Shown one piece after another: positions 20,889 to 62,542 of a stretch of 64,000 bases of DNA. The stretch lies in contig VEMY01000008.1 in the NCBI GenBank assembly GCA_009711825.1, positions 15,345 through 79,344 on the forward strand. Reading direction: 5' to 3'. Within the stretch, counting starts at the first letter, position 1; each line of letters starts with the position of its first letter. Source of the stretch: Bacillota bacterium (lineage in GTDB: Bacteria > Bacillota > Proteinivoracia > UBA4975 > VEMY01). Both the position numbers and the translations under genes were made by a program. The notes beneath the pieces were generated by a model. The model saw only the letters and a list, made by a program, of their open reading frames with translations, was not told where the DNA came from and made no database searches.

Positions 20889-20889
20889 T

Positions 20890-22892: not shown

Positions 22893-22894
22893 GC

Positions 22895-22960
22895 ATATCC
22901 TCCTTTTGTTAGTGATTAACTACAGGATAGCTCTTGTCTGTTAGCAGAGATTAATCGCTA
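22895..22960 (-). promoter_or_regulatory. candidate Pho-box region upstream of pstS
   Basis: Minus-strand TTAATCtctgcTAACAG...GTTAATCACTAACA contains TTAACA-like direct repeats immediately upstream of the pstS RBS. Confidence 0.4.
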
Positions 22961-22994
22961 TTTTAAGAAAAAGTAAAAACCAGCAAACGCTGGT
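22961..22994 (-). terminator. terminator after phoR
   Basis: AAACCAGCGTTTGCTGGTTTTTACTTTTT on the minus strand. Confidence 0.6.
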
Positions 22995-25477: not shown

Positions 25478-25560
25478 GAACTTAAGCTCAGCATAACAAA
25501 AAAATGTAAAACCTCTGTAAAGCTACGGTAAAACGTTGTTTACAGTGAAACCCTGACAAA
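25478..25560 (-). promoter_or_regulatory. Pho-box-like direct repeats upstream of phoP
   Basis: Minus-strand TAAACAacgtTTTACCgtagcTTTACAgaggtTTTACA: four TTWACA-like hexamers at about 11-bp periodicity. Confidence 0.5.
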
Positions 25561-41807: not shown

Positions 41808-41832
41808 CGCTTCCGTTTGCCCCCTTTTGGTA

Positions 41833-41846
41833 ATATGGTCTGACCA
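41833..41846. promoter_or_regulatory. GntR/FadR-type operator TGGTCTGACCAGTT upstream of etfB
   Basis: Palindrome TGGTCTGACCA (TGGT-N3-ACCA class), 26 nt upstream of the etfB start; identical copy at 42654. Confidence 0.6.
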
Positions 41847-41892
41847 GTTAAAGTCTTTGAACCTCTGTTGCAATGCGCTATTTCCCGGGGAA

Positions 41893-42618: not shown

Positions 42619-42653
42619 CGTAATCACCTCCAACCTTATGTATATCTGGACAG

Positions 42654-42667
42654 GTGGTCTGACCAGT
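42654..42667. promoter_or_regulatory. GntR/FadR-type operator TGGTCTGACCAGTT in the regulator's own 5' region (autoregulation candidate)
   Basis: Second exact copy of TGGTCTGACCAGTT. Confidence 0.55.
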
Positions 42668-42769
42668 TGTCTCCAGTCTAACCCGACCATCCAAACCTGT
42701 CAACAGCAGCGGGGACGTTTCCGTCTGGCAGGCAAACAAACTCTCCTGACCCGCAACCAGGTTTGATTT

Positions 42770-46846: not shown

Positions 46847-47942
46847 GTTGCTTCACCCCGTCGTCAAACTTTTTACGGGCGATAAGGTCGATAAAGGCCT
46901 CCACCCGGGTCTGGATATTGGCAACCCCGGTCTGCTCATCCAAGGACAGAGTCATCACCGGAATCCCGTGTTTTTCTGAAATCGCCGGTATGATACTCTG
47001 ACTGACCAATTCCGGCAGGCATCCAAAGGGCATCAAATGTATCACGCCGTCAAAACCCCGCTCGGCATAGTCGACAATATGACCCACTGTCTGGATGGCA
47101 TGGCCGCCGATTATCATCGGGATATACGGTCGGCCTTTTTTGATTGCCTTTTTTTCATGAGTCCAGTAATTCAGCGGGCCGGGCAGGAAGTTGTACTCTA
47201 CCCAGCCGGTCAGATACTGAGAGCGCTCCACTTCGCAGCCCAAATTGCCTAGAGTCTCTTCCAAATGCATATTGATTGAAGGTTCCATTACTACATAGAT
47301 CTCGCCCACCAGGCCGATGCGCAGGCGGCGACTGGTGTCTGCCCGCAAGGGGATGCTGTCCAGGAGCTCGTTCCCCTCAATGTAGGCCTGTTTCATCTCG
47401 GCAACTGACTGGGCTTTGTCAAACATAGCAGTTATTTTCCGCCAGGCCTGGGTGCAGTCGCCCCGGTTTTGCTCATAGGCCCGCAGCGTATGAAGACGCT
47501 TGTCCAGGTTGTCCAGCATCCGCATCATCCGGTAAACGCTGGTCAGGACGCTGCCCACTCGCAACACCGAACTGCCGGCCCTGAGCCGCTTTAGAGTTGT
47601 GAGGAAATCCTGAATATCATCGAATATCGAGTCGAAGACGATAAATTCAAGATTATGGCCCAATTGTTCCAGTATCCGACGGTGCACCTGATTATAGTAA
47701 CCAGCGCGGCAGGGGCCGTGGCCACCGGAAGTGATCACCACTTCGGCGCCCATTTCCGCGGCCTCAATATAGGTGCCGGTAATCATCTTCAGCGGCACAC
47801 AGGCAAATTCCGGGCTGTATTTTGCCCCCAAACTTATGGTCTTTTTGGTGGGCGGGGGCGGCATAATTACCTCATGGCCCAAAAGCTCCGCTATTTTTTT
47901 ATAGATTATTGTCGATCCCATATAGGGAAAGGTTACCTTCAT
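46839..47942 (-). CDS. 2-hydroxyacyl-CoA dehydratase-like (HGD-D/DUF2229 family) protein
   Basis: 367 aa; family typically paired with BadF-type activases; conserved Cys (PFGCLPE). Confidence 0.55.
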   Translation of the reverse strand: MKVTFPYMGSTIIYKKIAELLGHEVIMPPPPTKKTISLGAKYSPEFACVPLKMITGTYIEAAEMGAEVVITSGGHGPCRAGYYNQVHRRILEQLGHNLEFIVFDSIFDDIQDFLTTLKRLRAGSSVLRVGSVLTSVYRMMRMLDNLDKRLHTLRAYEQNRGDCTQAWRKITAMFDKAQSVAEMKQAYIEGNELLDSIPLRADTSRRLRIGLVGEIYVVMEPSINMHLEETLGNLGCEVERSQYLTGWVEYNFLPGPLNYWTHEKKAIKKGRPYIPMIIGGHAIQTVGHIVDYAERGFDGVIHLMPFGCLPELVSQSIIPAISEKHGIPVMTLSLDEQTGVANIQTRVEAFIDLIARKKFDDGVKQHA

Positions 47943-48934
47943 GCCCGCTCACCCCTGCGCTTCTTTCTACTCAGCATGTCCACAAAGGCCTCAACCCGGG
48001 TCAACAGGTGGTTCTCGCCGCTATGCTCATCAATCCGCACAGTCATAAACGGCTTGTCCACCTTGCCATAATCAACTTCGAAGATCTTGCCCAACATCGA
48101 ATCAGGACCGCAACCAAAGGCGGTCACATGCACCAACGCATCCACTTCAGGATTATCCAGACACCAAAGCCCCAGGGCCAGCAGTTTATCGCTGAAGGTC
48201 CAGAACAATTTCTTCGGCACCCGGGCAAGTGCTGATTGCAACACGTCATCGGGCAGCATTTCAAAAGTAATTACCCGCACGCCCATTTGCCGCAGTTTAG
48301 CAAGGATATCCATGCTCACATACGGATCGTAGAGGTTATACACATAACCGGCCACGCCGACAGTCAAAGGTGTATCTGCAGTAGCAGCCACCTCAGCACC
48401 ACCCTTGCCGGCAAGCGCCTGGTTGAGATCGGCGCCCTGCAAACTGAGGGCGCGGAACTCCCGCCAGGCTGCCACGGCATTGCGATGGGCCCGGCGATGC
48501 TTCAGATAACCCACGCCCAGGCGCGAGGCCACCGTGCGCAGACATTTCTCGTTATCCAGCGAATCATCCCGGCTGGTGAACAGCGGGCTCAGCATCCGTT
48601 CTTCCGACCCTGGCAAAGAGAACCGCAGCATGTCCGGAAGCCCCATAAACTTAGGACAGAAGAACTGCCCCTTTTGCACCGACACAAAGCGGGGCGCAAA
48701 GATATAATCAACCGGCTGTTCCAGTAACCAGTGGAAATGGCCAAGATATATTTTAATTGGCACGCATAGCTCCGGCGCCGCCAATTTTACTCCCCGGTCC
48801 ACAAGCTCTTTGTTGGTCGCCGGAGATACGACAACATCTGCACCCAGTTCTTGTAAATACGCAGACCACAGCGGGTAATAGTAGCTGTGCATCAATGCGC
48901 GCGGTATTGCTATTTGCACCCACATCCCCCCCAA
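47939..48934 (-). CDS. 2-hydroxyacyl-CoA dehydratase-like (HGD-D family) protein, second subunit
   Basis: 331 aa; paralogous architecture (VTAFGCGPDSM). Confidence 0.55.
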   Translation of the reverse strand: MGGMWVQIAIPRALMHSYYYPLWSAYLQELGADVVVSPATNKELVDRGVKLAAPELCVPIKIYLGHFHWLLEQPVDYIFAPRFVSVQKGQFFCPKFMGLPDMLRFSLPGSEERMLSPLFTSRDDSLDNEKCLRTVASRLGVGYLKHRRAHRNAVAAWREFRALSLQGADLNQALAGKGGAEVAATADTPLTVGVAGYVYNLYDPYVSMDILAKLRQMGVRVITFEMLPDDVLQSALARVPKKLFWTFSDKLLALGLWCLDNPEVDALVHVTAFGCGPDSMLGKIFEVDYGKVDKPFMTVRIDEHSGENHLLTRVEAFVDMLSRKKRRGERA

Positions 48935-49075: not shown

Positions 49076-50056
49076 CTATTTGTCATCTTCGGATTTAAGT
49101 CTTAATATCTCCTCGGCAGTCCGTTCTTCGGTGACCAGGACATTGAGTAGCCCGGTTTTGAGCACTGCATAAATAGCCCGCGCCTTGCCTATCCCTCCGG
49201 CAACCGCCATTCGCACTCTGGCGCGGCTAATCTGCTCCGGTGTAGCGGCAATCAGGCCATTTTGGTTGGAAGTAGTAGGTATTAAACCATTTTGCAGCAC
49301 AAACCAAAGACAGAAATCGGCAACCGGTTTTTCTTTGACCTCTTGGACAAATGCTTGCAGGCCGCGATAGAAATCCGGGTCCTCAAGCCGGCGCAGGGTA
49401 GGGATTGCCCCAATTCCAAGCACCGCCCAATCCATTTTATCCCAGAGTTGTACCACTTCCTGGGAATGGGGTTCCGCCAGAACCGATTCTCGAATTTGCT
49501 TACCGGAAACAAGAGCCGGCGCATAAAGATATTTGGACTTGCCCCCCAGTGCTGTGGCCGTCCGGGTAAGGATTTCAGTAATTGGGTAACCGGCATCTCC
49601 CTCTCCCAATCCGCCTGACAGTGGAATTACCGTCGGTTGTAATGTCTGGTCAGCGGGGAGTTTGTTGGCCATTTCGTAAATACTGTGCCCCCGTCCCATG
49701 CCGAGGATTGCCTGTTCCGGTAGGTTTTCGCCAATGTACTCAGCCGCAGCCCTGGCAATTTGCGGAACGATAACCTCCTGCTGGTCAACTGCCATCGGGG
49801 TTACAATCGCGTCTTGCAGGGCAAAAGCTTGTTTAAGTTTTTGTTGAATGACTGTATTTTGGGCAATTGGGTTGCGAACGGTTATTTCCACAATTCCATT
49901 CTCCCGGGCCTGGCTTAAGAGCCGAGAGACCTTTGGTCGGGAAATCTCCAACATCTCTGCGATTTCTTCTTGAGTTTTGCCCTTTTGGTAGCAAAGTTGA
50001 GCCACTGCCACCATCAAACTGATGTCATCGCGGGATGGTTTTTTGCTCCTCGCCAT
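49076..50056 (-). CDS. SorC/DeoR-family sugar-binding transcriptional regulator
   Basis: 326 aa; N-terminal HTH (KTQEEIAEMLEISRPKVSRLL) plus SorC sugar-phosphate binding domain. Confidence 0.8.
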   Translation of the reverse strand: MARSKKPSRDDISLMVAVAQLCYQKGKTQEEIAEMLEISRPKVSRLLSQARENGIVEITVRNPIAQNTVIQQKLKQAFALQDAIVTPMAVDQQEVIVPQIARAAAEYIGENLPEQAILGMGRGHSIYEMANKLPADQTLQPTVIPLSGGLGEGDAGYPITEILTRTATALGGKSKYLYAPALVSGKQIRESVLAEPHSQEVVQLWDKMDWAVLGIGAIPTLRRLEDPDFYRGLQAFVQEVKEKPVADFCLWFVLQNGLIPTTSNQNGLIAATPEQISRARVRMAVAGGIGKARAIYAVLKTGLLNVLVTEERTAEEILRLKSEDDK

Positions 50057-50175
50057 AATTCACTCCACCTCGCTGCCAAGATTTACTAATATTCCATAAG
50101 TATGGTCTTATTATAAATGTAGGTATTTTATTTTGCAACCAAAGAAGGGACTCGTTGACGAGTCCCCTCCCCCTA

Positions 50176-50964
50176 TTACAGTTCTTTTTTGGCTTCCTCG
50201 ACAGTTGCGTCTTCGTGGAGAATGCGCGCAATTGCCCTGGTGATTTTTTCTGGCTCCGGCTGCCGCCAGACATTGCGGCCCATGGCTACGCCCCGGCCGC
50301 CTGCCTGCACAGACTCATATACCTGCTGCAGCAATGCGATTGGGTCTTTTGCTTTGCCGCCGCCCAGCACAACGATGGGAGCAAAAGTGCCAGCAACAAC
50401 ACTCTTGAAGCTCTCGATATCACCTGTGAAATCAGTTTTGATAAAGTCTGCGCCCAGCTCAACACCCATCCGGCAAGCGAGGGCAATGCTCTCGGGAGTG
50501 CGGGAATCTTCGCCACCTTCAAAGCCCCGGGGAAGCATTTCAGCCATCAAAGGCATGCCCCATTTGTAGCAATCACTAGCCAATTCTGAGAGGTAAGGGA
50601 GCGTTTCAGCCTCAAACTTGGAACCCGGGAAGCCCATGCAGACCACGCCGTCAGCGCCCAGACGCAGGGCATCTTCTACGGAGTAGATCCGGCGAATCGG
50701 GTTGCTGTTCTGAGCCATTTGGGAATAGCCGCCATCAACACGCAGCACGAGGCCGGCGGAACCGATGGAATCGGCGAACTTGCTAGCGATACCGAAGGTT
50801 GTCATGATTACGTCGGCGCCACCGGCGACAACCCGCTCAATCTTCTCAGCCGGGTTTGCGAGTTCTGGCAAAACGTTCATCCCAGAACCATGGTCCATGG
50901 CGACAATTAAAGTGCGACCTGTCTTGCGGAAAATGTTGTTTAGTCTTTTGGTTTTCATCTTCAA
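50176..50964 (-). CDS. class I aldolase of the DhnA/FbaB (archaeal-type FBP aldolase / LsrF / DeoC-LacD) family
   Basis: 262 aa; TIM-barrel class I aldolase motifs (IVAMDHG..., GADFIKT, Schiff-base Lys region). Confidence 0.65.
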   Translation of the reverse strand: MKMKTKRLNNIFRKTGRTLIVAMDHGSGMNVLPELANPAEKIERVVAGGADVIMTTFGIASKFADSIGSAGLVLRVDGGYSQMAQNSNPIRRIYSVEDALRLGADGVVCMGFPGSKFEAETLPYLSELASDCYKWGMPLMAEMLPRGFEGGEDSRTPESIALACRMGVELGADFIKTDFTGDIESFKSVVAGTFAPIVVLGGGKAKDPIALLQQVYESVQAGGRGVAMGRNVWRQPEPEKITRAIARILHEDATVEEAKKEL

Positions 50965-50974
50965 TTCCTCCTGA

Positions 50975-52015
50975 TTACATAGTTAAAACGATACGATAAG
51001 TGGCGTTGTTGCTTGCTTTGTCCAGAGCGGCCTTGGCATCGGCCAGAGGCTGTGTTTCCTCAATCAGTTCGGCTGTGCTGATGATGCCTTTGGAAATCAG
51101 GGCTGCTGCATCCCACATATCCCGCAGGTTTTTGCCCTTTACTCCGGTTAGGGCAATGCCGGTGTCGTGAATCAAGTTCGGGTTAATGTCCAGGGGCTCT
51201 CCCGGATGGGCAGAGGCGAAATAGAGCACACTGCCATAATTGGCTACCATCTTAATTGCATCATCATTGGCATGTTTGTTACCGATGGTAATGATCACAG
51301 CTTCGGCCTTTTTGCCTTCGTTCAATTCCTGAACTCTGACCTCAACATCTTCCTCCGCCGGATTAATAACAGCGTCAGCGCCTAGCTTTAAGGCCTTTTC
51401 TCTGCGACCGGCATCAAGTTCACTCACAATTACTCGGGCACCACTGCTTTTCGCAGCCAGGACATTTAGCAAGCCCATGGTGCCGGCGCCGATGACAACA
51501 ACGGTATCACCGAGACGCACATTCACTTTCTTGATTCCCTGAAGCACACAGGCCAATGGCTCGGTGAGCGCCGCCTGCTCGAACGGAATATCTTTGGATA
51601 TCTTCAATGCCCGCTTGGAAGCGATAACCATATACTCAGCCATCCCGAACAAGCCGACAACACCATCAATTTTGGGCAATGGCGCCTTCTTGACGCAGTG
51701 CTCTTCCAAACCTTTGCTGCAGTTGTCGCATTCGCCGCAGAAGTAAGGAACACCCAGGGCCACATGATCGCCCACCTGAAGATCAGTCTGACAGTCAGGG
51801 CCGATCTTCTCAACCACACCAGAAACTTCATGGCCCCAACACCCCGGATAGGGGAATTTTTTAACACCTGTATATACCCGTTGTTCCATTGTGCACAGTG
51901 CGACTGCACGTTGGCGGATTAAAACCTCGCCCGGGCCCGGCTCGGGCACTGGTAATTCGCGAATTTCAAACTCGTAAGGAGCGGTCATTACTCCTGCTTT
52001 CATTGTCTTTGTCAT
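50975..52015 (-). CDS. zinc-dependent medium-chain alcohol/polyol dehydrogenase (sorbitol/threonine dehydrogenase-like)
   Basis: Start ATG 52013-52015 (RBS AGGAGG); GHEVSGVV Zn-ligand region, GAGTMGLL Rossmann motif, structural-Zn Cys cluster (CGECDNC). Confidence 0.8.
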   Translation of the reverse strand: MTKTMKAGVMTAPYEFEIRELPVPEPGPGEVLIRQRAVALCTMEQRVYTGVKKFPYPGCWGHEVSGVVEKIGPDCQTDLQVGDHVALGVPYFCGECDNCSKGLEEHCVKKAPLPKIDGVVGLFGMAEYMVIASKRALKISKDIPFEQAALTEPLACVLQGIKKVNVRLGDTVVVIGAGTMGLLNVLAAKSSGARVIVSELDAGRREKALKLGADAVINPAEEDVEVRVQELNEGKKAEAVIITIGNKHANDDAIKMVANYGSVLYFASAHPGEPLDINPNLIHDTGIALTGVKGKNLRDMWDAAALISKGIISTAELIEETQPLADAKAALDKASNNATYRIVLTM

Positions 52016-52166
52016 TTCACTTGTCCTCCTTTCTCGGGGGTACCCGAGAATGCTAGATAATTTTTTCACATACTGCTGTGGTCGGGGTATGACAATTGGT
52101 GTAATTTGCGGGCAAAGGCCACACCTTTGCCCGCTTTGATTAGATTGAGAGAACTAATTAGATGTC

Positions 52167-52928
52167 TTAGGGAACGAGTACCAGGTTGAAGTAGGTCAGG
52201 AGAATCGCGAAGAACATCAGGCCAAAGATTAGGTAGACAGGCTTGACACCCTTGCGCAATAATGCGTAAGCCAGGAAGAACATACCCAGGGCCGGGATCC
52301 CAGGCATCAGCTGGTCGAGGATTTCCTGAAGGTTGATAACCTGCTCACCAGTGGTGTAGGTAATGTTCAGGGTGATGTCCACGAGGCTGGCAACCATGGT
52401 GCCGACCAAAACGAGACCGACAATCTTTGCACCTTCAGCTACGGTGTCAATGATACCGCGCATCCGGGAGAGAGCTTCTACACCCAGGTTATAGCCGAGG
52501 CCAACCAGGTAGTATGCGCTACCTGCAAAGAGGGCAATCAAGGTGAACACGGAGAAGAACCAACCAAAGGAGTTACCGTCGAGAACCATGTTGGTACCAA
52601 TGGCAAGAATAATCGGGACCAAGCTGGCGTGGAACAGTGAGTCGCCGATACCAGCAACGGGACCCATGGTCGCAACCTTCAGACCCTGGATAGCTTCGCC
52701 GTCAATGGTGTCTTTGTTCTCAATCCGCTGTGTTTCCATTGCTGCAACCATGCCGGGCACAACAGCGCCGGCGTAAACGTTGGTGTTCCAGAAGGTTATA
52801 TTTCTGGTCATGGACTCAGCGCGTTCTTCGTCAGTCTTATACTTCCGGAGCACAGGCGCCAACTGATAGGCAAAGCCCCAACCGCCAAGAACTTCAAAGG
52901 AAGCATTGTAGTACCAGCAGAAGTTACG
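52167..52928 (-). CDS. PTS mannose/fructose/sorbose-family IID component, portion downstream of an in-frame TAG; N-terminal about 38 aa are encoded in-frame upstream, fused to IIC
   Basis: Homology to ManZ starts before the TAG at 52929-52931 (KEPLSFADRVSMA*RNFCWYYNASFEVLGGWGFAYQ aligns with KKLTQSDIRGVFLRSNLFQGSWNFERMQALGFCF). Confidence 0.6.
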   Translation of the reverse strand, partial: RNFCWYYNASFEVLGGWGFAYQLAPVLRKYKTDEERAESMTRNITFWNTNVYAGAVVPGMVAAMETQRIENKDTIDGEAIQGLKVATMGPVAGIGDSLFHASLVPIILAIGTNMVLDGNSFGWFFSVFTLIALFAGSAYYLVGLGYNLGVEALSRMRGIIDTVAEGAKIVGLVLVGTMVASLVDITLNITYTTGEQVINLQEILDQLMPGIPALGMFFLAYALLRKGVKPVYLIFGLMFFAILLTYFNLVLVP

Positions 52929-53825
52929 CTAGGCCATGGAGACACGATCAGCGAAGCTCAGAGGCTCTTTGACGATCTCGCCGTCAGCTGCAGCAGCAGC
53001 TTCTGAATCTTCTACAGAATCCTGACCATTGCGGGTCTTCATGTAGAACACAACCAGACCGGTAACAACCAGAGCCAAAGCCAGCGGGGTCATGTTGGTG
53101 GTCATGCCAATGGCAAAACCGGCAACAAACAGGAGAATCAGAGAACCAGGGTTCATGCTGTAGATCAAGAGCGCGAAACCGGCAACAGGGAGCATTCCCT
53201 GCATAACGCCAAAACCATTTTGCAACCACTCAGGAATTAATCCGAGCAGGCGACCAACCAGGGGGATACCATAGTAAACACCCAGGAAGGCGGGGACAGC
53301 ATTGATAAGTGTAATCGCGATAGGCTGTAACAGGGCATGCCAGAGCTCCAGCTTCTTGATATCGCCTTTCTTGGCAGCTTGGATTGCAATCCGCTCATAG
53401 AAGAAAGACATGATTGTCAGGTTGCCCAAGAAGAGCATCAGCGAGAATACCGAAATCGGGATTGCCATGCCCAACACAGCGCCGTGATCGGCACCGAGAA
53501 CGCTGGCGAAGATGACAGCCATAATAGTGGCGACCATCGGCCGCGGCGGAACCGCAGCGCCAACGATAAACACACCAAAGAATAAGAGCTGGATCAGAGC
53601 GCCGACTTGAACACCGGTGGCAAAGTCACCAATAAACAAACCGGTCAGACCACCAATCGCCAGGGGATGGTCAGAAATGAAACGCCATACTTGCAAGATA
53701 CCGATAATAATACCATGGGCTGGTGTTTCTTTCTGCCTAATAGCGGCGATCAGCTGGAGGGGCCATGCTGTTACGAGAAACCAGCCACCTGCCAAAAATG
53801 CAGCAATTAAAGCTGTTCCTAACAT
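52929..53825 (-). CDS. PTS mannose-family IIC component, translationally continuous (same frame, no stop) with the IID N-terminus
   Basis: 298 aa ORF; the IIC body ends near ...LVVTGLVVFY and the frame continues MKTRNGQDSVEDSEAAAAADGEIVKEPLSFADRVSMA, which is the IID N-terminus. Confidence 0.7.
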   Translation of the reverse strand: MLGTALIAAFLAGGWFLVTAWPLQLIAAIRQKETPAHGIIIGILQVWRFISDHPLAIGGLTGLFIGDFATGVQVGALIQLLFFGVFIVGAAVPPRPMVATIMAVIFASVLGADHGAVLGMAIPISVFSLMLFLGNLTIMSFFYERIAIQAAKKGDIKKLELWHALLQPIAITLINAVPAFLGVYYGIPLVGRLLGLIPEWLQNGFGVMQGMLPVAGFALLIYSMNPGSLILLFVAGFAIGMTTNMTPLALALVVTGLVVFYMKTRNGQDSVEDSEAAAAADGEIVKEPLSFADRVSMA

Positions 53826-53852
53826 CTGATTAAACCTCCTATTAATAATTTA

Positions 53853-54338
53853 TTAGAGATAACGGGTAATATCTGTGGGCCGATCCTGGGGTACTACCCT
53901 GATCTCACATTTGACACCTAGTTCCTGCAGACGCTTGAAATCTGCGCGATCCTCATCGGTCAGCATCACCGACTTAGTTACTTTGGTAGCCTGGTCGGTT
54001 TTACCCATGGCGCCCATATTGCCAATCACGAAATGCTCAAACTTTACGCCACCTTCTTTGAGGGCCAAAACTTCGTCGGGACCGGTGGTGATTACAAATA
54101 CCCGGGTGCTGTCCCCAGCCAAGGGACCCGTGAGCTTTTCGATTGCGTCTGCCACTGTGACGACCTCAGTCTTAATGTTCTTGGGCGCTGTGAGTTCAAC
54201 GACACTTTTACGCACCTTGTCGTTCACGACCCGGTCGCTGGCAATCATGATCCGGTTGGCATTGGCATGGGAAATCCATTTGGTAGTTATCTGACCATGA
54301 ATCAAACGGTCATCAATTCTGATAAGGGCGATAGCCAA
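53853..54338 (-). CDS. PTS mannose/sorbose-family IIB component
   Basis: Start TTG 54336-54338 (RBS AGGAGGAA): MAIALIRIDDRLIHGQI..., active-site His region. Confidence 0.8.
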   Translation of the reverse strand: MAIALIRIDDRLIHGQITTKWISHANANRIMIASDRVVNDKVRKSVVELTAPKNIKTEVVTVADAIEKLTGPLAGDSTRVFVITTGPDEVLALKEGGVKFEHFVIGNMGAMGKTDQATKVTKSVMLTDEDRADFKRLQELGVKCEIRVVPQDRPTDITRYL

Positions 54339-54403
54339 AGTGCATTCCTCCTGAATTAGTATTAAATACATGCCGAACCATCACTATTGAAGCTTGAGGA
54401 GCA

Positions 54404-54793
54404 TTAGATTTTCAGTTGCTGTATCCCCTCCTTACCCAAATCTACAAGCTTTTCGGCTATCTGGATCGGCGCTTCACCGCTACCCCGCATACCGACAGCT
54501 TCCAACAGCATTCCCAGATTCACACCCACCAGGCATACCGCGTTTGTTTCAGCGGTTACAGCCAGTGCAATGTTGCAAGGGGTGCCTCCAAACAGGTCTA
54601 CGGCGATTAACGCCCCCTGCCCGGTATCGACTTCTGCAACTGCTGCTAACATTTTTTCTTTAAGAACCTCTGGGGCCATGTCCGGTTCCAGATTGATTGC
54701 CTTAAACTGCTCCTGGGGTCCGACAATCAACTCCATTGCCTCCGCAAAACCCTGGGCAAGGCCACCATGGGCTGCTACTACGAGTCCTATCAC
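54404..54793 (-). CDS. PTS mannose-family IIA component
   Basis: 129 aa; MIGLVVAAHGGLAQG... (phosphorylatable His) and EIIA-Man fold. Confidence 0.8.
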   Translation of the reverse strand: MIGLVVAAHGGLAQGFAEAMELIVGPQEQFKAINLEPDMAPEVLKEKMLAAVAEVDTGQGALIAVDLFGGTPCNIALAVTAETNAVCLVGVNLGMLLEAVGMRGSGEAPIQIAEKLVDLGKEGIQQLKI

Positions 54794-54798
54794 TTAGG

Positions 54799-54812
54799 TC
54801 ACCTCCTCTGAA
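54799..54812. promoter_or_regulatory. palindromic operator TGAACAACTGTTCA (GAAC-N4-GTTC core) abutting the RBS of PTS IIA, with extra TGTTCA/TGAACA half sites at 54821 and 54926
   Basis: One of three near-identical sites in the window (54799, 60619, 62347). Confidence 0.55.
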
Positions 54813-54820
54813 CAACTGTT

Positions 54821-54932
54821 CAATACTATTGTTCACTGTGCTGCAATACTTCGCCATTGACCGCATATATTCCTGCTATGAATACAAGTTTTTTTGAAAT
54901 TTTGTACTGAAATTTTGTGCAGCACAGTGAAC
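54821..54932. repeat. 16-bp perfect inverted repeat TGTTCACTGTGCTGCA ... TGCAGCACAGTGAACA separated by 80 bp in the grdA-PTS intergenic region
   Basis: Arms at 54821-54836 and 54917-54932. Confidence 0.7.
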
Positions 54933-54941
54933 AGGGAGGAT

Positions 54942-55397
54942 TTAGCTATCGCCCCGGTAGGTGGCGACTTCCTTCTTGATTTCATCTACATCCAAAACCA
55001 TCTCCATCATGCTGATTTGCTCTTCCCAGATGGCTGGATCAATCTGCTCTTGCAGCTCAAAAATATGAAACACTGGGAGTTCCAACTGAACTCCCGCCAA
55101 TGGACCGGCGAAGGTGGGGTCGCCGCTGGTCACTGTCTCGGCAGCCAGGCCGCTGGCTTCCGCCTCGGCCCCTCCCAATACAACAACCAATTGCTCACGG
55201 CCATACTTTTCGGCCAGAGCCTTGACCCGCGCCTGATTTTCCAGATCCATGGCGCCTGCTGCAGTTCAGACAAAACATTCAGTTGCAGAGAAAACTATTT
55301 CCGCGCCGGCAGCTTCCAGACATTCATTGATTGCCGGCCCGGGCAATCCATCCCGGTCGCCCAGGACAATTGCCTTCTTGCCTTTTAAGTCAATCAT
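54942..55397 (-). CDS. grdA: glycine/sarcosine/betaine reductase complex selenoprotein A (GrdA) with in-frame UGA selenocysteine codon at 55266-55268
   Basis: Start ATG 55395-55397 (RBS AAAGGAG): [61 protein letters not shown]... matches the invariant GrdA CFVUTAAGAMD motif. The ORF track shows only the post-UGA part (54942-55250). Confidence 0.85.
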
Positions 55398-55433
55398 CTT
55401 AGTACTCCTTTCTCAGTTTCGAATTTGTGCTAA

Positions 55434-56744
55434 TTAATATGCTTCCGCGAAGAAGCGGCTGTGCCCCGACTGATTGCCGGAACAGTATAGCAATGTGGTG
55501 GTGGGAAATTCAATTGGGTCAAGAGCGTCAGGGAACCGCCCGCCGGCTTCTTTATCAAGACGAAGCTTAGGGCCCCCAACAACATTATCCATCCGGGGCA
55601 GCTGCACCGGCTTCTCAATGCTGGAGCCGCTGACAATTGCGTCGGCCTCAGGGACATCGTCAACCAGGAGTATTCCCTCGGTTCCATCAGCGCCGCCGAA
55701 TTCAAAGGTTACGGTGGAAGCCTTGATCCCAGCCTTCTCCGCCAGCTGGATTGTCAGCATGCCGTCGGTGGCAGCGTTGCCACCACCTTCCCAGGCCATG
55801 ACAAGTCCGTCGGCCTTGAGCATCCGGGCCAGCTTCACACAGACCCCGGCGCAACGCACCTTATGCCAATGGGTGGGGTTGTGGCTGCGGGAGAAAATGA
55901 CGCCCTTGAAGTTCAAATCCTTGCCGTGACGGCGGTAGAGGTCCAACAGAATCGGGTGATTCACATGTAGATAGGTGGGAACCTTAAAGGCTGGCCACAC
56001 ATAGTTTCCGCTGACAACGCAGCCGTCCAGCATCTCATTTGGATGAAGAACCGTCGGCACCAGCTCCTCCACATCCTTGCCATAGAGGAATGTGTTGGCG
56101 TAGACACCTTGGTTCTGCACCTGCCAGACCAAAACCACGTTGGGAAGATCTGGATTTGTCTCTTCGATGGAGAACAATTCCTCGTCATCTGCTTCACCCT
56201 GAGCTGCCTTAGCAGCCAGGTATTCGGCTACTTTTAAGCTGGAGAGCCGGATATCCCGGTCATACTCTTCAGCAGATTTGCCGGGTTTCAGCTCATAGGT
56301 CATTACCAGATTCACAGTCTCCGAAAAGGGAGTGATCCCCTTGTACGGTCCTGTCATATCCATGATTGCTTCCCGGGGATACAAGAGGCCGCTGCTGGCA
56401 CTGGCGCTGTCCCAGGGCAAGGGCGCCGACTGCATGACGGTAAAACCGTCTAAAACAGCGGTAGTGCCTTCGCCTATCATCTCCGGCGAGCCGAAGAATC
56501 CGGAATATGGCACGCCGCGGCCGTCAAGCCTGGCCATAGGCTGCAATGTATCCAAAAGGTGAATTATCCGCGTGGACTCGCCCGGGTGGACCAAATGGAA
56601 CTCAATTCTTTCGATATTTTCGGTCTGTTCGGCGGCCAGTCGCTCAATCTCTTCTTTATTTATGGTCAGCTTGCCCGATTCCAGGGCTGTTTGAGCGCCC
56701 CAGGCGGCAGACTGAACCCGATAGTATTTTCTGGTCAGTTCCAT
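55434..56744 (-). CDS. grdE: glycine/sarcosine/betaine reductase component B proprotein subunit (GrdE/GrdG/GrdI family)
   Basis: 436 aa; Gly_reductase family architecture, positioned 3' of the selenoprotein B gene. Confidence 0.7.
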   Translation of the reverse strand: MELTRKYYRVQSAAWGAQTALESGKLTINKEEIERLAAEQTENIERIEFHLVHPGESTRIIHLLDTLQPMARLDGRGVPYSGFFGSPEMIGEGTTAVLDGFTVMQSAPLPWDSASASSGLLYPREAIMDMTGPYKGITPFSETVNLVMTYELKPGKSAEEYDRDIRLSSLKVAEYLAAKAAQGEADDEELFSIEETNPDLPNVVLVWQVQNQGVYANTFLYGKDVEELVPTVLHPNEMLDGCVVSGNYVWPAFKVPTYLHVNHPILLDLYRRHGKDLNFKGVIFSRSHNPTHWHKVRCAGVCVKLARMLKADGLVMAWEGGGNAATDGMLTIQLAEKAGIKASTVTFEFGGADGTEGILLVDDVPEADAIVSGSSIEKPVQLPRMDNVVGGPKLRLDKEAGGRFPDALDPIEFPTTTLLYCSGNQSGHSRFFAEAY

Positions 56745-58081
56745 TATCTTTCCTCCTTTTCCAACCGGACATGAAACAGTGTCGGCTCTTCTACCGGTGT
56801 TTGCAATGCCTCCACAGCCTTCAGGAGCATTTGCTTCTGGAACTCTTTCTCCCGGTCAGCCGGTAGTTCCGGCGCTCCTGCCGGCGATGTGAACTGGTTG
56901 CCGGCAATGACCCGGTTGGCCCCTACCGACAGGGCAATGGATGTAAAGGCGGTGATCAGGACAGCAGAGATGCCCACACGTTCGAGTTCCTTGGTAATCG
57001 TTGCACCGCAACGAGTACAAGTACCTCACGTGGAAGTAAGAATCGCTGCCGGCACACCCGCTTCCAGAAGCTCAGCGGCGATTTGCGCGCCTAATCCTTC
57101 ACTGGTCTTAATGTTGGTGCCAACACCAGCGGTCGAGTAGAACTTGGGATAAACGCGGCCAATCTTCCCTTCCTGCTCCAAAGCGCGCAGGGGGCTATAA
57201 GGCACTACCCGGGACGGGTCTTCATTAACCAAAGTAGTGTCGAAACCACCGTGGATAGACTCATACTCGCCGGCAGCTAACTCTTCCAGTCCTTCCAGGC
57301 TGTAGCTGCCGTAGCTGGTGGAGAAGGCCTGCTTTAACCCATCCGGGTTGCCGGTGGGCACCAAAGCGCCGGTTGTAATCAGGGCAAATGTTTTGGTTTC
57401 AGGCTGCTCAAGAACCGGTGCTGGTGGCACCTGCTCAAAGCCGCGCAGCGGCACTTCGGTCTCATATTCTTCGCCCCGCAATTTCTTAAGCAACAGTTCC
57501 ACAGTCCGTTGGGCTGCAGTCTTTTCATGCCATTCGTTGTAGCGATAGCCCCGGGGGAAGTAACCTTCCAGACGGGCGGGCCCAACTTCCTCTCCCTTTG
57601 CCAGCTTGAGGGCAAATGCGGCCAGCGGTGGCAGGGCCTTACGCATACCGGCTGCTGTTTCCGGTGTGCGGATGATATAGTTATCAGATACAAACATTGG
57701 CACCGCCGGGTTCTCCCAATACATGGCGGTTACTGCGGGAATCCCAAACTCCCGACGCACAAAATCTACGAACTTGCCGCAGGCAACACCGTAGCGCCCA
57801 GCGTTGAAGGCGGGCCCGGCAATCACTACGTCAGGCTTGACCTCCTGAATAATTTCCCGCAGGCGAGGCAATAATCCCTCGAATTTGTCATCATCATTAA
57901 AATAGTTGTCACCGCAGGCAATGGTTTTTACCACTTCCATCTCATCCTGCCAAAACTTATCCATACCGAGAGCCGGCCCCAGCTTTTGGTCGTATTCCTG
58001 TAACCCAATATCTGCTTTGTCTTCGCCGCCAATTCCGGCGTAAAACTGATTGATGTAGTACAAGGCTCTTTTCTTAGACAT
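56744..58081 (-). CDS. grdB: glycine/sarcosine/betaine reductase component B selenoprotein (GrdB/GrdF/GrdH family) with in-frame UGA at 57026-57028
   Basis: The 351 aa ORF ending AAILTST is followed, in the same frame, by TGA and a 94 aa continuation (GTCTRCGATITKELERVGISAVLITAF...) that is the ORF-track 56744-56977 entry. U-x-x-C-x-x-C context; total about 445 aa, typical for GrdB. Confidence 0.8.
56999..57013 (-). ncRNA. SECIS-like hairpin 12 nt downstream of the grdB-like UGA
   Basis: Minus-strand CGTTGC-GGT-GCAACG (6-bp stem, GGU loop) at the spacing expected for a bacterial SECIS. Confidence 0.5.
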
Positions 58082-58099
58082 TGACTGACCTCCTTTAAT

Positions 58100-58387
58100 C
58101 TAGCCGCCGGCCATCGGCGGCAGAAATTTCACGTAATCTCCGTCCTGCAGGGAGGTGGCCAGCTGCTTGGAACCAAGAATATTATTGGCGCCCACCCAGA
58201 TCAGGGCCTGCAGCTGGTCGTTTGTCGCAGCCTCCCGGGCCACTTCCCGGTCAAACCGTTCCCCCAGCTGTTCTCCCAACTGCGCCAGCAGCTCGGCAAC
58301 AGTGCTGCCCTCAGGCAAGGTCACCGTAAGTTCCGGTGCCGGCGCATATTCCTGAAAGAAGGAGAAAAAGCGAACCTTTATTTCCAA
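58100..58387 (-). CDS. MoaD/ThiS family ubiquitin-like sulfur-carrier protein
   Basis: 95 aa ending in ...PPMAGG (C-terminal Gly-Gly). Confidence 0.7.
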   Translation of the reverse strand: MEIKVRFFSFFQEYAPAPELTVTLPEGSTVAELLAQLGEQLGERFDREVAREAATNDQLQALIWVGANNILGSKQLATSLQDGDYVKFLPPMAGG

Positions 58388-60201
58388 GGGAGTTCTACTC
58401 CCAGGCGCTCACAGGTTTCAGCAGTGGGCACGCCATCTGTATCCCAACCCCGGACCTGGTAATATTCCTGCAGCATGTTGATAAATGCTTGCCGGTCAAG
58501 GGCCTTTTCCTCGCCTTCAACTTCAATTGGCTCAAAGCAGCGTTCTGGCAGCATATCCTGGTCACCGGTGAGGCCCGAAGCCAGGTTGTACATACGCTCC
58601 AGATTCCAAATCCGCTCACCAATCAGGCGGAACTCTTCGAGATCCTTGTTCATACCGGTGGCCGCGTTCAGCAGTTCCACAAATAGGGTATGGGGCAGCT
58701 CGAAATCCGCGAACCGACAGCTAACCAATGTGAACAGAGCATTGACGATATCCTGTATTTCCCGAACAACCTTGGCCTTACCCTCGGTAGATTCCATGGG
58801 TATTTCACCCATCAACTCCATACCGATTGGCCCACGCTTATGGCAGGCGCCCCGGTTGGAGGTGGCAAAGGTGAGGGCAATCCCGGCCATGCGCTGGGGC
58901 ATCCAGGCGGCAAACTCCATCCCCTTAGAGTTCATGGCAAAGTCAGCACTCCCCTGGCCAATCCGCTGAGCCATCAGCCGGGTGCCGTCAGCCAGCATAT
59001 CGCCGACGCCTTCCCGTCTAGCCATCAGTTCCAGGGCTTTGAGGATTGCTTCACCGTTGCCAAACTCTAAGTCAAAGCCCACTTCCTCGGGCTTAAGTAG
59101 ACCGCGCTCAAAGCATTCCATGGCAAAGGCAATCGTGCAACCAGCAGAAAGGGTATCCATACCGTATTCCTCACACAATTCATGGGCCCGGGCCAGAACC
59201 ATCGGATTATCGTTGAAACAATCGGAGCCCAGGGAATACATGGTTTCATACTCGGGTCCCCGGGTAAACAGACCATCCTTTTCGCCTTCGAAGGCGTGGA
59301 GCTGTCCACAATGAACCGGGCAACCAAAGCAGGCAATCCGACGGGAGCGGGCCAGCTTATGGTAGGCCGAGCTATCAATCTTATCGCCGGTGGCGAAGTG
59401 TGCATATTTGTGGTTCTTGGTCGCAAGAGCGTAGCGCTCGTTAATCAGACTCATGCCGCCGCCGGTGCCGTAACGGGAGAACACACCCAGAAGGTTGAAC
59501 TGGTTCTCGGTGGCCTGCTTAAACTTAGCGAAGGCCTCGTCTACTTTGGCGCCGAAGGTCTCGGGATCATTGACTTTGACACCGAGATTACCTTTAAATG
59601 CAACCCCTTTAAGATTCTTGCTGCCCATGACAGCACCAGAACCGCCGCGGCCAAAGACCCGGGTCGAAGCGATAATCGCGGCAAAGCGCACCTGGCTTTC
59701 ACCCGCGAGACCGATGGCTGCAGTGCCACATTCCTCCCCTTCCTGGTCGCGCATGTGGTCCTCCACGGCATTTACACCCTTGCCCTGGAGCTCGGGGCAT
59801 TCCACAAACTTTACACCCACCGGTGTTATCAGGACATAAGATAAATTCTCGCAGGCGCCTTCAAAGATCACCAAATCAAACCCTGTGCCCTTAATCTTCT
59901 GAGCAAAATTGCCGCCACAGTAACAATTGATGACGCCGCCGGTTAAGGGAGATTTGGTAACAAGGGCTGCCTGGGCAAACAGAGGAGCGCCAGTGCCGGA
60001 TAGCGGCCCGGTGGTGAAAATCAGCTTGTTCTCCGCTTCCAGGGGATCGACTTTGGGGTCCACCTCCTGGGTTAGATACCAGACCCCGGTGCCCATGCCA
60101 CCTACGTAATTCTCCAACACAGCCGTGGGAATCTCCTCTATCTGCCAGGACTTGTCCGTGAGGTTTACCCGCAAAAGTTTGCGATTATAGGCTTCGTACA
60201 T
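58378..60201 (-). CDS. aor: tungsten-containing aldehyde:ferredoxin oxidoreductase (AOR family)
   Basis: Start ATG 60199-60201 (MYEAYNRKLLRVNLTDK...); AOR N-terminal domain plus conserved Cys ligands for the [4Fe-4S] cluster; about 607 aa. Confidence 0.85.
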   Translation of the reverse strand: MYEAYNRKLLRVNLTDKSWQIEEIPTAVLENYVGGMGTGVWYLTQEVDPKVDPLEAENKLIFTTGPLSGTGAPLFAQAALVTKSPLTGGVINCYCGGNFAQKIKGTGFDLVIFEGACENLSYVLITPVGVKFVECPELQGKGVNAVEDHMRDQEGEECGTAAIGLAGESQVRFAAIIASTRVFGRGGSGAVMGSKNLKGVAFKGNLGVKVNDPETFGAKVDEAFAKFKQATENQFNLLGVFSRYGTGGGMSLINERYALATKNHKYAHFATGDKIDSSAYHKLARSRRIACFGCPVHCGQLHAFEGEKDGLFTRGPEYETMYSLGSDCFNDNPMVLARAHELCEEYGMDTLSAGCTIAFAMECFERGLLKPEEVGFDLEFGNGEAILKALELMARREGVGDMLADGTRLMAQRIGQGSADFAMNSKGMEFAAWMPQRMAGIALTFATSNRGACHKRGPIGMELMGEIPMESTEGKAKVVREIQDIVNALFTLVSCRFADFELPHTLFVELLNAATGMNKDLEEFRLIGERIWNLERMYNLASGLTGDQDMLPERCFEPIEVEGEEKALDRQAFINMLQEYYQVRGWDTDGVPTAETCERLGVELPWK

Positions 60202-60596
60202 TACTTGCTCCTCCTTTCCCGGGAAATTGCGCCGGTAGAGCACACCTTGGTGCAGTGATACTCTCCGTTGCAGGTGTCGCAGATGTGAATCTTTCCTTCA
60301 AAAGTCAGGACAGCATCAAATGGACAGGCCTCCACACAGAGCCCACATTCCGTGCACAAATCGTAGTCCACGGCGATAACTCCGTCCTCAGCCTGGGTCA
60401 AAGCGGTTACCGGACATACTTCCACGCAGGCCGGCTTTTTGCACTGACGGCAGTTCTTAAGCTCCGGTAAACGGGGCCATTTGCCATCGATACCTAGGCG
60501 CGCCTTTGCCGGATTATATTCTTTTTCCTTGACAAAGGAGCACTTCAAGCGACAAGCGTAACATTCGGTACACTCCTGAGCAGTAAAATACAGCAC
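60201..60596 (-). CDS. 4Fe-4S dicluster ferredoxin-domain protein (multiple CxxCxxCxxxCP motifs)
   Basis: Start assigned to GTG 60594-60596 (RBS AAGGAGG 8 nt upstream); CTECYAC, CRQCKKPACVEVCP, CTECGLCVEACP motifs; the stop overlaps the AOR start. Confidence 0.7.
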   Translation of the reverse strand: MLYFTAQECTECYACRLKCSFVKEKEYNPAKARLGIDGKWPRLPELKNCRQCKKPACVEVCPVTALTQAEDGVIAVDYDLCTECGLCVEACPFDAVLTFEGKIHICDTCNGEYHCTKVCSTGAISRERRSK

Positions 60597-60618
60597 ATCT
60601 CTCGCCTCCTTATTAGAC

Positions 60619-60632
60619 TGAACAATTGTCCA
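60619..60632. promoter_or_regulatory. palindromic operator TGAACAATTGTCCA with downstream TGTTCAG half site (60640-60646), immediately upstream of the ferredoxin-AOR operon RBS
   Basis: Same architecture as the sites at 54799 and 62347. Confidence 0.55.
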
Positions 60633-60820
60633 AAACTTTTGTTCAGTATTACCATTCGCTCTGTCCTTCGCGAATTCCTGCCCAAGAACCAAAAAAATTT
60701 TTTATATCTGTAGCAATAAAACTGGGAGGGCAGTGCCCTCCCAATTCAGATTAAGCAATAGCAGCGACCGAGGGCGTGTATATAAAGCACGCAGGTGGTC
60801 GACTAAATAACCACTACGAA

Positions 60821-62221
60821 TTAATCGTCCAGGGTGACTCCGTGCAACTCGGCAATAATACGTGCCACATCAGTGTTGTCCAGCAGGCCTCCAAAGGACT
60901 CCGCTCCAGGGCCATAGGCATATAACGGCACTGGATTAGCAGTGTGTCCTTCGGTGGGACAGATGTCGCGGATCGGGCCGTAAATTACGCCGGCATTGGC
61001 ACGCTTTGCGACAATATCTCCCAGGCGGCCACCAGAGAGGAAGGTGGGCAGCTCCGAGACTTCTTGCAGATATTCTATTTCATCATCGGTAAGGTCGCTG
61101 ATACCAGTGTAAGTGTCGATAACTTCACGCAGACTTTCGACGACAAAATTATTGTCTTCATCTTTGTCAATTTGAGCCATGATGAATGGCGGTGAAGCGT
61201 TTACACCTTCGATGAGCTCAAAGTCCAACGGACCGGTTACGGCAAAGCCATAAGTGTCATGGTCGGCTGTAATAATAACCAGGGTGTCATCACGCTCCCG
61301 AGCAAAGTCCAAAGCGGCTTTTGCGGCAGCGTCAAAGTCTTTCATTTCAGCGATGACACCAGGGACGTCAGCGGCATGGGCCGCATGGTCAATTCTTGAC
61401 CCTTCAACCATCAGGAAAAATCCGTTTTCATTCTGGCTCAGGAATTCAATCCCCTTGCTGGTCATCTCAGCCAGAGAAGGCTCATTGGTGTTGAGCAGCG
61501 CTTGGTCCAGCTGATAGTTCAGGTGCCCGGTGTTGAACAGTCCCAGGAGTTTTTCGCCGCTAGCCGCAGCCAGTTCATCACGGTCCGCTACATAGGTATA
61601 ACCTTGCTCAATTGCCTCCTCCACCAGGTTGCGACCATCGGTGCGACGCCCGCCTTCTTCACCTTCAGGCAAAAAGCGATCACGGCCACCGCCCAGCAAT
61701 ACATCAAGGCCGGTTTCAAAGACCTGAGTGGCTATCTCTTCGGAAGCGGCCCTGCTATCAACATGAGCAGCGAAACCGGCAGGAGTAGCGTCGTAAACTG
61801 TATTAGAAACTACAATACCAGAAGCCTTGCCAGCTTCCATAGCGGCCTGGGCCAGCGACTTTACTGGCGTTCCGTCTGGTTTTACACCCAGCATGCCGTT
61901 GTTTGTCTTATGACCGGTGGCAAGCGCAGTGGCCGCAGCAGCTGAATCGGTAACATGGAAGTCAGCGGAAGCGGTCAGCACCAAACTTGTTACAGGCACC
62001 TGCTCCATGTGCAGCAATTCACCCGGTTCAGCATTAAAAAGCCGGGCAAACTCAACATGGCCCACGCCCATGCCATCGCCAATAAGCAGAATCACGTTCT
62101 TGACTTCTCCTTCTCCGCCGCTTTCATCGCCGCCGCTGTCAACGTCGATCGGTTCCAGCTCGGCGCAGCCAACTGCGGCGACCATCATCAGCGCCAGAAG
62201 TAACACTAAAAACTTCTTCAT
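60821..62221 (-). CDS. phoA: alkaline phosphatase (PhoA family) lipoprotein
   Basis: 466 aa; lipobox VGC; DGMG, active-site Ser region (TDSAAAATALATG), metal-ligand motifs. Confidence 0.85.
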   Translation of the reverse strand: MKKFLVLLLALMMVAAVGCAELEPIDVDSGGDESGGEGEVKNVILLIGDGMGVGHVEFARLFNAEPGELLHMEQVPVTSLVLTASADFHVTDSAAAATALATGHKTNNGMLGVKPDGTPVKSLAQAAMEAGKASGIVVSNTVYDATPAGFAAHVDSRAASEEIATQVFETGLDVLLGGGRDRFLPEGEEGGRRTDGRNLVEEAIEQGYTYVADRDELAAASGEKLLGLFNTGHLNYQLDQALLNTNEPSLAEMTSKGIEFLSQNENGFFLMVEGSRIDHAAHAADVPGVIAEMKDFDAAAKAALDFARERDDTLVIITADHDTYGFAVTGPLDFELIEGVNASPPFIMAQIDKDEDNNFVVESLREVIDTYTGISDLTDDEIEYLQEVSELPTFLSGGRLGDIVAKRANAGVIYGPIRDICPTEGHTANPVPLYAYGPGAESFGGLLDNTDVARIIAELHGVTLDD

Positions 62222-62346
62222 TAGAAATCTCTCCCTCTTATATCATACTTGTGCCGATTAAAATGACCTGTTTCAGTGCAACAAAAACCACAAGTACTCC
62301 CAGGGTAAAATCGTAGACCTCAGCCGATATATCTCCCCCCTCATGT

Positions 62347-62360
62347 TGAACAATTGTTCA
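62347..62360. promoter_or_regulatory. perfect palindrome TGAACAATTGTTCA plus TGTTCAA half site (62367-62374), about 125 nt upstream of the alkaline phosphatase start
   Basis: Third copy of the TGAACAAnTGTTCA operator-like motif. Confidence 0.55.
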
Positions 62361-62542
62361 TGACCAATGTTCAATTCAAGTATTCTTCCCCTGGAAGCAA
62401 AATTCCTGCCTGTAGACGGAACTTTTTCCCGATTTTTGTTTAACGAAGTAAAATCGCTTTGAAGCAGATCCCGTTTTTCCAGCCCGACAGATCGTCGAAC
62501 CAGAATAAAAAGACGGCAGGCTCCATGCCTACCGTTTCCTAT

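Follow-up and report, generated by a model that had tools for sequence, protein, structure and literature searches.

Putative bipartite operators of a SorC/DeoR-type repressor downstream of sigma-H-like promoters of three catabolic transcription units in an uncultured Firmicute

The stretch of DNA analysed here, 64,000 nucleotides of contig VEMY01000008.1 from an uncultured Firmicute (hereafter the 64-kb window), carries three transcription units, which encode a phosphotransferase system (PTS) with two accompanying enzymes, a set of proteins around an aldehyde:ferredoxin oxidoreductase (AOR) and Grd-type selenoproteins, and an alkaline phosphatase. All the genes in this part of the window lie on the minus strand. 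Each unit is preceded by a compact, repeated DNA element, and a regulator gene of the SorC family is found at the end of the PTS operon. We consider it likely that the three elements are bipartite operators of a SorC-family repressor belonging to the DeoR-type helix-turn-helix (HTH) subfamily, most likely the product of the gene at 49076-50056. This assignment is made because the half-site and its spacing match those of DeoR, a SorC gene is linked to the sites, the sites are conserved in relatives, and the half-site covaries between promoters within each genome.

Results

Three composite sites precede three transcription units

An earlier note on this DNA reported three near-identical sites built on the palindrome TGAACAnnTGTTCA. 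The sites are real: when the palindrome was counted in the window at no more than one mismatch and the count was compared with 100 shuffles, three occurrences were found against 0.14 expected, and none of the shuffles reached three. The first (54809-54822) and the third (62347-62360) palindromes are perfect, while the second (60619-60632) carries one mismatch (TGTCCA). A third TGTTCA half-site is also present at each location, but its distance from the palindrome is exactly 7 bp at all three sites and not 7-9 bp, as first described. Similarly, the positions originally given are correct for sites 2 and 3, whereas site 1, placed at 54798-54827, was displaced by about 10 bp, the string quoted for it corresponding to 54808-54836. 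A relaxed search with a 16-mer, allowing up to three mismatches, returned no further convincing site in the window.

Read on the gene strand, the three sites follow one 27-bp scheme, TGAACA-N7-TG(A/G)ACAnnTGTTCA. Specifically, this unit is made up of two dyads offset by 13 bp, namely a degenerate one, P1 (TGAACA-nn-nGTnnn), and P2 (TGAACAnnTGTTCA), with a core of TTGAA-N6-TTCAA. As previously proposed, sites 1 and 2 abut ribosome-binding sites (RBS), site 1 that of the PTS IIA gene (GTG start at 54793) and site 2 that of the ferredoxin gene (ATG at about 60598). Site 3 precedes the phoA start codon (ATG, 62221) by 125 nt. The coordinates of all these features are collected in Table 1.

Table 1. 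Positions of the operators, promoters, transcription units and candidate regulator gene in the window
Feature	Position	Strand	Remarks
Operator 1	54809-54835	-	TGAACAATAGTATTGAACAGTTGTTCA; degenerate promoter-proximal dyad P1 and perfect 14-bp dyad P2; P2 abuts the PTS IIA RBS; kept in L122/L124
Operator 2	60619-60645	-	TGAACAAAAGTTTTGGACAATTGTTCA; just upstream of the ferredoxin-gene RBS; orthologous cassettes in L124, L126, L123 and L132
Operator 3	62347-62373	-	TGAACATTGGTCATGAACAATTGTTCA; 125 nt upstream of phoA; equivalent cassette at the L128/L127 phoA orthologue
Sigma-H-like promoter 1	54847-54876	-	-35 GCAGGAAT (54869-54876), -10 GAAGTA (54847-54852)
Sigma-H-like promoter 2	60652-60681	-	-35 GCAGGAAT (60674-60681), -10 GAATGG (60652-60657)
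Sigma-H-like promoter 3	62380-62409	-	-35 GCAGGAAT (62402-62409), -10 GAATAC (62380-62385)
Candidate cognate regulator	49076-50056	-	SorC family, DeoR-type HTH subfamily; end of PTS operon; Pfam Sugar-bind and HTH; recognition helix ISRPKVSRLL
Transcription unit 1	50176-54793	-	mannose/Aga-type PTS, Zn-dependent dehydrogenase, DhnA/LsrF-type class I aldolase
PTS IIA	54404-54793	-	
PTS IIB	53853-54371	-	
PTS IIC	52929-53825	-	
PTS IID	52167-52862	-	
Zn-dependent dehydrogenase	50975-52069	-	
DhnA/LsrF-type class I aldolase	50176-50964	-	
Transcription unit 2	54942-60602	-	ferredoxin, tungsten-type AOR, MoaD/ThiS, GrdB-like selenoprotein, GrdE-like protein, GrdA selenoprotein
Transcription unit 3	60821-62221	-	alkaline phosphatase, PhoA family, N-terminal signal or lipoprotein-like sequence
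16-bp inverted repeat, distal arm	54918-54933	.	partner 54830-54845 includes the P1 half-site; repeat brackets promoter 1

Two local features accompany the operators. Downstream of operator 3 (window 62300-62346, minus strand), an RBS-like sequence, GAGGGGGGAG, is found without a canonical start codon at the right distance, and a possible 22-codon open reading frame (ORF) starts at an ATG overlapping it; this arrangement may be what is left of a copied cassette, or it could encode a small leader peptide. In addition, the perfect 16-bp inverted repeat described near operator 1 does exist, with arms at 54830-54845 and 54918-54933, 72 nt apart. The repeat is species-specific, with no counterpart in the orthologous loci L122 and L124 (loci of other genomes are designated by L and a number), and a role as an auxiliary half-site or in looping is a guess. 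The grdA gene, located further upstream, shows no canonical terminator downstream, so that read-through transcripts would contain both arms of the repeat.

Sigma-H-like promoters lie immediately upstream of the operators

By aligning the three upstream regions we found a second conserved block, absent from the earlier note. The sequence GCAGGAAT-N16-GAA(T/G) occurs with zero mismatches at exactly three places in the window, each 8-13 nt upstream of the 27-bp unit. The sigma-H consensus (-35 RnAGGAWWW, -10 RnnGAAT, spacer of 11-12 nt) was taken for comparison, and the pattern AGGA-N17/18-GAA(T/A/G) recurs in each of the 11 cassettes, that is, promoter plus operator, of the window and its relatives. 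Mapped SigH promoters of C. difficile show AGGA-N17/18-GAAT or GAAAT, with the transcription start about 8-10 nt further, as in AGAGGATTATGAGAGTTCGTGTAGAAT (PMC7438776). The cassettes resemble the sigma-H (Spo0H) promoters of Bacillus and Clostridioides both in the AGGA(W3)-N14/15-GAAT arrangement, found in 11 of 11, and in the C. difficile-like distance of 17-18 nt between AGGA and GAAT, but differ from them in an invariant GC preceding AGGA and in the catabolic nature of the target genes. Given the match to this promoter class, the operator would cover approximately positions +1 to +27.

No sigma-70-type promoter was predicted in the three intergenic regions. Two other readings were tried and rejected: a sigma-54 promoter (GGCAGG..TTGC) showed inconsistent GG-to-GC spacings of 10, 9-10 and 11 nt, and TGAAC taken as a -35 element of the extracytoplasmic function (ECF) type came without a CGT-type -10 and left no space for a leader. 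Elsewhere in the window (11582-12109) there is an ECF sigma gene, adjacent to an unannotated ORF. As for the cellular context of sigma-H, a Gmad2 germination domain and YheC/D are encoded in the window and GerA operons adjoin the orthologous cluster in relatives; because of these genes, the source organism looks like a spore-former.

With the start site placed in this way the palindrome would be transcribed, and the sites could be read as an RNA element, namely a 5'-terminal leader hairpin that stabilises the mRNA or modulates translation. In minimum free energy folds the first TGAACA and the last TGTTCA do base-pair (-9.4 to -10.1 kcal/mol), but the three leaders fold no better than their shuffles (z = -1.16, -0.42 and +0.43), the hairpins leave out the RBS, and no Rfam match falls at the sites. 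Moreover, the asymmetric dyads TGAACAAAATTTCA of L124 and TGCACACATGTTCA of L126 argue against a hairpin, since they break the pairing while still fitting the DeoR-type half-site pattern. We consider an RNA element very improbable.

The regulator encoded at the end of the PTS operon is a relative of DeoR

The earlier note spoke of an uncharacterised regulon under one regulator. A candidate for this regulator can be named, as a gene for a SorC/DeoR-subfamily repressor ends the PTS operon and SorC genes accompany the composite motif in distant phyla as well (see below). Full-length alignments relate the encoded protein of 326 aa to K. pneumoniae SorC (2W48, E 1e-32), B. subtilis DeoR (8R7Y, E 9e-28) and LsrR (4GO1), and its recognition helix, ISRPKVSRLL, compares with ISRPTVSRLL in DeoR. 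Its best NCBIfam match is DeoR, with 183 bits against an equivalog cut-off of 420, and it scores 96 bits against the LsrR model (cut-off 486); with a DeoR score well below the equivalog cut-off, the protein is to be regarded as a DeoR relative and not as its orthologue. The gene has a sigma-A-like promoter of its own (TTGCAA at 50133-50138, a 17-nt spacer and TATAAT at 50110-50115), located downstream of a terminator at 50147-50167.

The B. subtilis DeoR operator is ATTGAACAAAATTTCAATTACCAATTTACATATGTTCAA, with base-specific contacts to TTGAACA; the DeoR tetramer occupies a palindrome together with a direct repeat and requires the second half-operator TTACA..TGTTCAA (PMC11229326). The window sites (TGAACA/TGTTCA) share the DeoR half-site TTGAACA/TGTTCAA and the spacing TTGAA-N6-TTCAA, the gene-strand dyads being TTGAACAGTTGTTCAG, TTGGACAATTGTTCAG and ATGAACAATTGTTCAA, as against ATTGAACAAAATTTCAAT in DeoR; the dyad before the ferredoxin gene of L124, TGAACAAAATTTCAA, is identical to the DeoR OL over 15 bases. 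A bipartite layout for a tetrameric repressor, with a good dyad and a degenerate one (TTACA-nn-TGTTCAA for DeoR), may also be common to both systems, and the recognition helices are nearly identical. In contrast, DeoR has its operator at -60 to -21 relative to a sigma-A promoter, and the dyad centres there are separated by about 22 bp, whereas here the dyads are 13 bp apart, at approximately +1 to +27 of sigma-H-like promoters, and serve three transcription units.

Promoter and operator are conserved in relatives and vary together within each genome

Conservation in related genomes had been set beforehand as a test of the proposal. A metagenome scan with the full cassette pattern returned one locus, L122, syntenic with the window (protein identities of 69-89%), in which the promoter blocks and the operator are kept in otherwise diverged intergenic DNA. 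Searching with AOR homologues added four more genomes, L124/125 being the same organism as L122; AOR is 70-78% identical in L122, L123, L124/125, L126 and L132. In L124/125, and likewise in L123, cassettes precede both the ferredoxin gene and the PTS genes. L126 and L132 carry a short module consisting of the ferredoxin gene, AOR, a Zn-dependent dehydrogenase (ADH) and SorC, with cassettes before the ferredoxin and ADH genes in L126 and before the ferredoxin gene in L132. A phoA orthologue (68% identical, L127/L128) adjoins another AOR-aldolase-ADH-PTS-SorC module and is preceded by GCAGGATTT-N15-GAAG followed by AGAACAACTGTAATTTACAGATGTTCG, in the same 13-bp two-dyad layout as in the window. 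Conservation is thus found before the ferredoxin-AOR genes, before PTS or ADH genes and before phoA, and the linkage to a SorC gene is kept in L122-L127 and L132. The second dyad recurs in 11 of 11 cassettes at an offset of 13 bp, and not of about 22 bp as for DeoR, and which of the two is the better one alternates (in L132, P1 is good and P2 is TTACAACTGTTCAA).

The half-site changes in parallel at the promoters of each genome. Specifically, it is TGAACA at all the promoters of the window and of L124, TGCACA/TGTTCA at both promoters of L126, and TGAAAT/ATTTCA at both promoters of L123, which is the only genome with a changed regulator helix (LSRPKVCRLLNQAK). Together with the conserved cassettes, this parallel change supports the original proposal that one palindrome-binding regulator acts on the PTS, ferredoxin-AOR-MoaD-Grd and phosphatase units.

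The same variants bear on a different identity of the sites. GAAC-N4-GTTC is the core of the Gram-positive LexA operator, and the earlier note had pointed out the resemblance of the sites to this Cheo box (CGAACnnnnGTTCG); the metabolic operons would then be unusual members of an SOS regulon. The core is present in the window dyads, intact at sites 1 and 3 and in the form GAAC-N4-GTCC at site 2. However, it is lost in orthologous sites that keep both the position and TGAA-N6-TTCA (TGAAATTAATTTCA and TGAAATAATTTTCA in L123, TGAACAAAATTTCA in L124, TGCACACATGTTCA in L126), which argues against LexA. What these sites preserve is the B. subtilis DeoR dyad, and the resemblance is not supported as their explanation. 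In the window the core is flanked by T/A instead of C/G and stands before metabolic genes, no SOS gene was found within the 64 kb, and the motif tracks SorC genes across phyla in the scan described below. LexA control appears highly improbable.

The cassettes could also be copies of a promoter segment, or a chance repeat, with no shared regulation. Their identical spacing at the three window sites is compatible with copying, and the RBS-like remnant without a start codon after site 3 would fit a copy placed before phoA. On the other hand, the expectation of 0.14 sites speaks against chance, and the sequences between the conserved blocks are unrelated, which indicates that conservation is limited to the functional blocks and does not reflect a recent copy; the blocks also persist in genomes with protein identities as low as about 70%. 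We regard this explanation as extremely improbable.

Further observations were made on the related loci. The supra-operon fdx-AOR-(MoaD)-GrdB-GrdE-(GrdA)-PTS-ZnADH-aldolase-SorC, where fdx is the ferredoxin gene, is kept in several related genomes, and a Tepidanaerobacteraceae version (L131) reads GrdB-GrdE-fdx-AOR-ThiS-amino-acid permease, without a SorC gene. In L127 (3080-5927), an inserted two-gene DUF1670 element separates the -10 of the phoA cassette from its operator, whereas the cassette of L128 (5764-6000) is uninterrupted. Finally, in L132 (4431-4530) the sequence TGAACATTTGTAAT overlaps the TATAAT of the SorC gene's own promoter, which suggests SorC autoregulation in that genome.

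The composite motif is found near SorC genes, and near TetR genes, in distant phyla

We scanned 185,579 genomes with the 27-bp composite pattern and obtained at least 120 loci; the source genome was not among them. An 8-kb locus was taken for each match and the flanking genes were clustered, and the counts given here refer to the matches listed. A SorC homologue is present within the 8-kb locus in 14 of 120, lying less than 800 bp from the site in 12-13 of these, as judged by coordinates. These SorC genes usually have a DhnA-type aldolase gene and a Zn-ADH gene as neighbours, which reproduces the trio of the window, and the SorC-linked loci come from Spirochaetes, Actinobacteria and Vibrio.

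The scan also brought up a second association. In 16 of 120 matches a TetR gene stands beside very similar tandem TGAACA arrays; these genes form one TetR-regulator cluster spread over many phyla and are divergent from tandem TGAACAnnnGTTT-TGAACAnnTGTTCA arrays, with three tandem units in Paenibacillus (L002, L012, L020, L026, L037, L039, L044, L050, L053, L057, L060, L083, L096, L111, L118 and L121). This is a separate and widespread operator class using the same half-site. It raises the alternative that a TetR-family protein, or another regulator encoded elsewhere, binds the window sites while the linked SorC protein recognises something else. Nevertheless, the window holds no homologue of that TetR cluster, no TetR-family gene was called in any syntenic relative locus, and the SorC gene is the only regulator called beside fdx-AOR-ADH in the short module of L126 and L132. 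Since operator variation tracks the SorC recognition helix and the sites agree with the DeoR operator in half-site and spacing, we hold this alternative to be unlikely.

In a further group of actinobacterial matches, from Catellatospora, Frankia, Actinomadura and others (L004, L010, L017, L041, L048, L062, L064 and others), TGAACATCTGTTCTGAACAnnTGTTCA lies directly upstream of the gene for a protein of about 500 aa with an FAD-binding-like N-terminus (DVAIIGGG).

Gene content of the three units and of the surrounding window

A selenocysteine insertion sequence (SECIS) in grdB (56988-57025) was the sole Rfam match when the whole window was scanned. Against the NCBIfam models for glycine, sarcosine and betaine reductases, the scores of GrdE and GrdB stay far under the cut-offs, and the locus lacks linked GrdC/D genes, so that the substrate may be new.

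The phoA unit is bounded by terminators, one upstream (62513-62535) and one downstream (60724-60742). A PhoP/PhoR-like two-component system and pstS-pstC-pstA-pstB-phoU are encoded at 18571-25459, and control of phoA by PhoP was considered and rejected, as direct Pho-box repeats were not found upstream of the gene. In the window, the pattern TT(A/T/C)ACA-N5-TT(A/T/C)ACA is confined to the phoPR-pst region (25505-25521 and 21917-21933), in both cases as the PhoP-box-like TTTACA-N5-TTTACA. phoA thus appears, from its upstream sequence, to have left Pho-box control, which fits its recruitment into the sugar regulon.

Elsewhere the window encodes a BcrAD/HgdC-type activase with two DUF2229/HGD-D proteins (45863-48934), a lactate-utilisation-like set made up of GntR, ETFab and an FAD-linked oxidase (38394-42690), and a class I lysyl-tRNA synthetase (9348-11024).

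Discussion

All together, the half-site, the linked regulator gene and the conserved, covarying cassettes depict an architecture in which a SorC/DeoR-type repressor would control three transcription units from sites located just downstream of the promoters. According to the mechanism that we propose, each operator follows a sigma-H-type promoter (rGCAGGAAT-N15-GAAT), running from about 8-13 nt beyond the -10 up to the RBS, and the repressor, bound to it as a dimer of dimers, would block open-complex formation or promoter escape at the PTS-ADH-aldolase, fdx-AOR-MoaD-GrdBEA and phoA units. A phosphorylated sugar intermediate of the PTS pathway would release the repressor, and transcription would then depend on the transition-phase sigma factor. 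The binding, the repression rather than activation, the transcription start, the sigma-H dependence and the effector are all inferred from sequence.

Some points weigh against this reading. The regulator gene's own promoter carries no operator, so that autoregulation is not evident in the window, and another SorC paralogue, or a regulator of a different class encoded outside the 64 kb, may be the actual binder. The TetR-linked arrays described above use much the same tandem half-sites. The 13-bp geometry of the scan matches was imposed by the search pattern, and the spacing itself, which a tetramer would have to accommodate, differs from that of B. subtilis DeoR, the dyad centres being 13 bp apart instead of about 22 bp. 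In addition, the three promoters are inferred to be of the sigma-H type through consensus matching only.

Known members of the family offer partial parallels. The E. coli lsrR-lsrA intergenic DNA contains TGAACA-N21-TGTTCA twice, and LsrR shares with the window regulator its place among the SorC/DeoR-subfamily repressors, TGAACA and TGTTCA half-sites in the control region and the association with a DhnA/LsrF-type aldolase; in that system, however, the half-sites are 21 bp apart and the Lsr transporter is an ATP-binding cassette (ABC) system with a kinase, not a PTS. B. subtilis CggR, of the SorC/CggR subfamily, binds as a tetramer to a two-part operator downstream of the transcription start (+32 to +77) and responds to a sugar phosphate, as proposed for the window repressor, but it possesses a winged-HTH domain and recognises repeats of unrelated sequence (CGGGAC-N6-TGTC). 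Against this background, the present system looks unusual in what its putative regulon contains (Grd-like selenoprotein reductase, AOR, PTS and PhoA), in having sigma-H-like promoters and in the compact geometry of its operators.

Regarding the physiology, we offer only tentatively the possibility of an undescribed catabolic route of anaerobic spore-formers. In such a route the substrate of the mannose/Aga-type PTS, perhaps an amino-sugar or a glycated amine, would be passed to the Zn-dehydrogenase and the DhnA-type aldolase, alongside a divergent Grd-type selenoprotein reductase without linked protein C genes, a tungsten AOR and a secreted alkaline phosphatase. One DeoR-like repressor would keep the whole switched off and the transition-phase sigma factor H would transcribe it, which would make it a scavenging pathway of the starvation phase.

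In conclusion, for an uncultured Firmicute, an observation made on sequence alone has led to a named candidate repressor gene, three defined putative operators and a prediction of the promoter class. The DeoR/LsrR half-site TGAACA is apparently in broad use by SorC/DeoR-subfamily regulators, from Firmicutes and Spirochaetes to Actinobacteria and Vibrio, and the compact two-dyad arrangement of 13 bp could aid regulon prediction in a family with few characterised operators. Finally, joint control of a Grd-like selenoprotein reductase, AOR, a PTS and PhoA would point to a metabolism not yet described.

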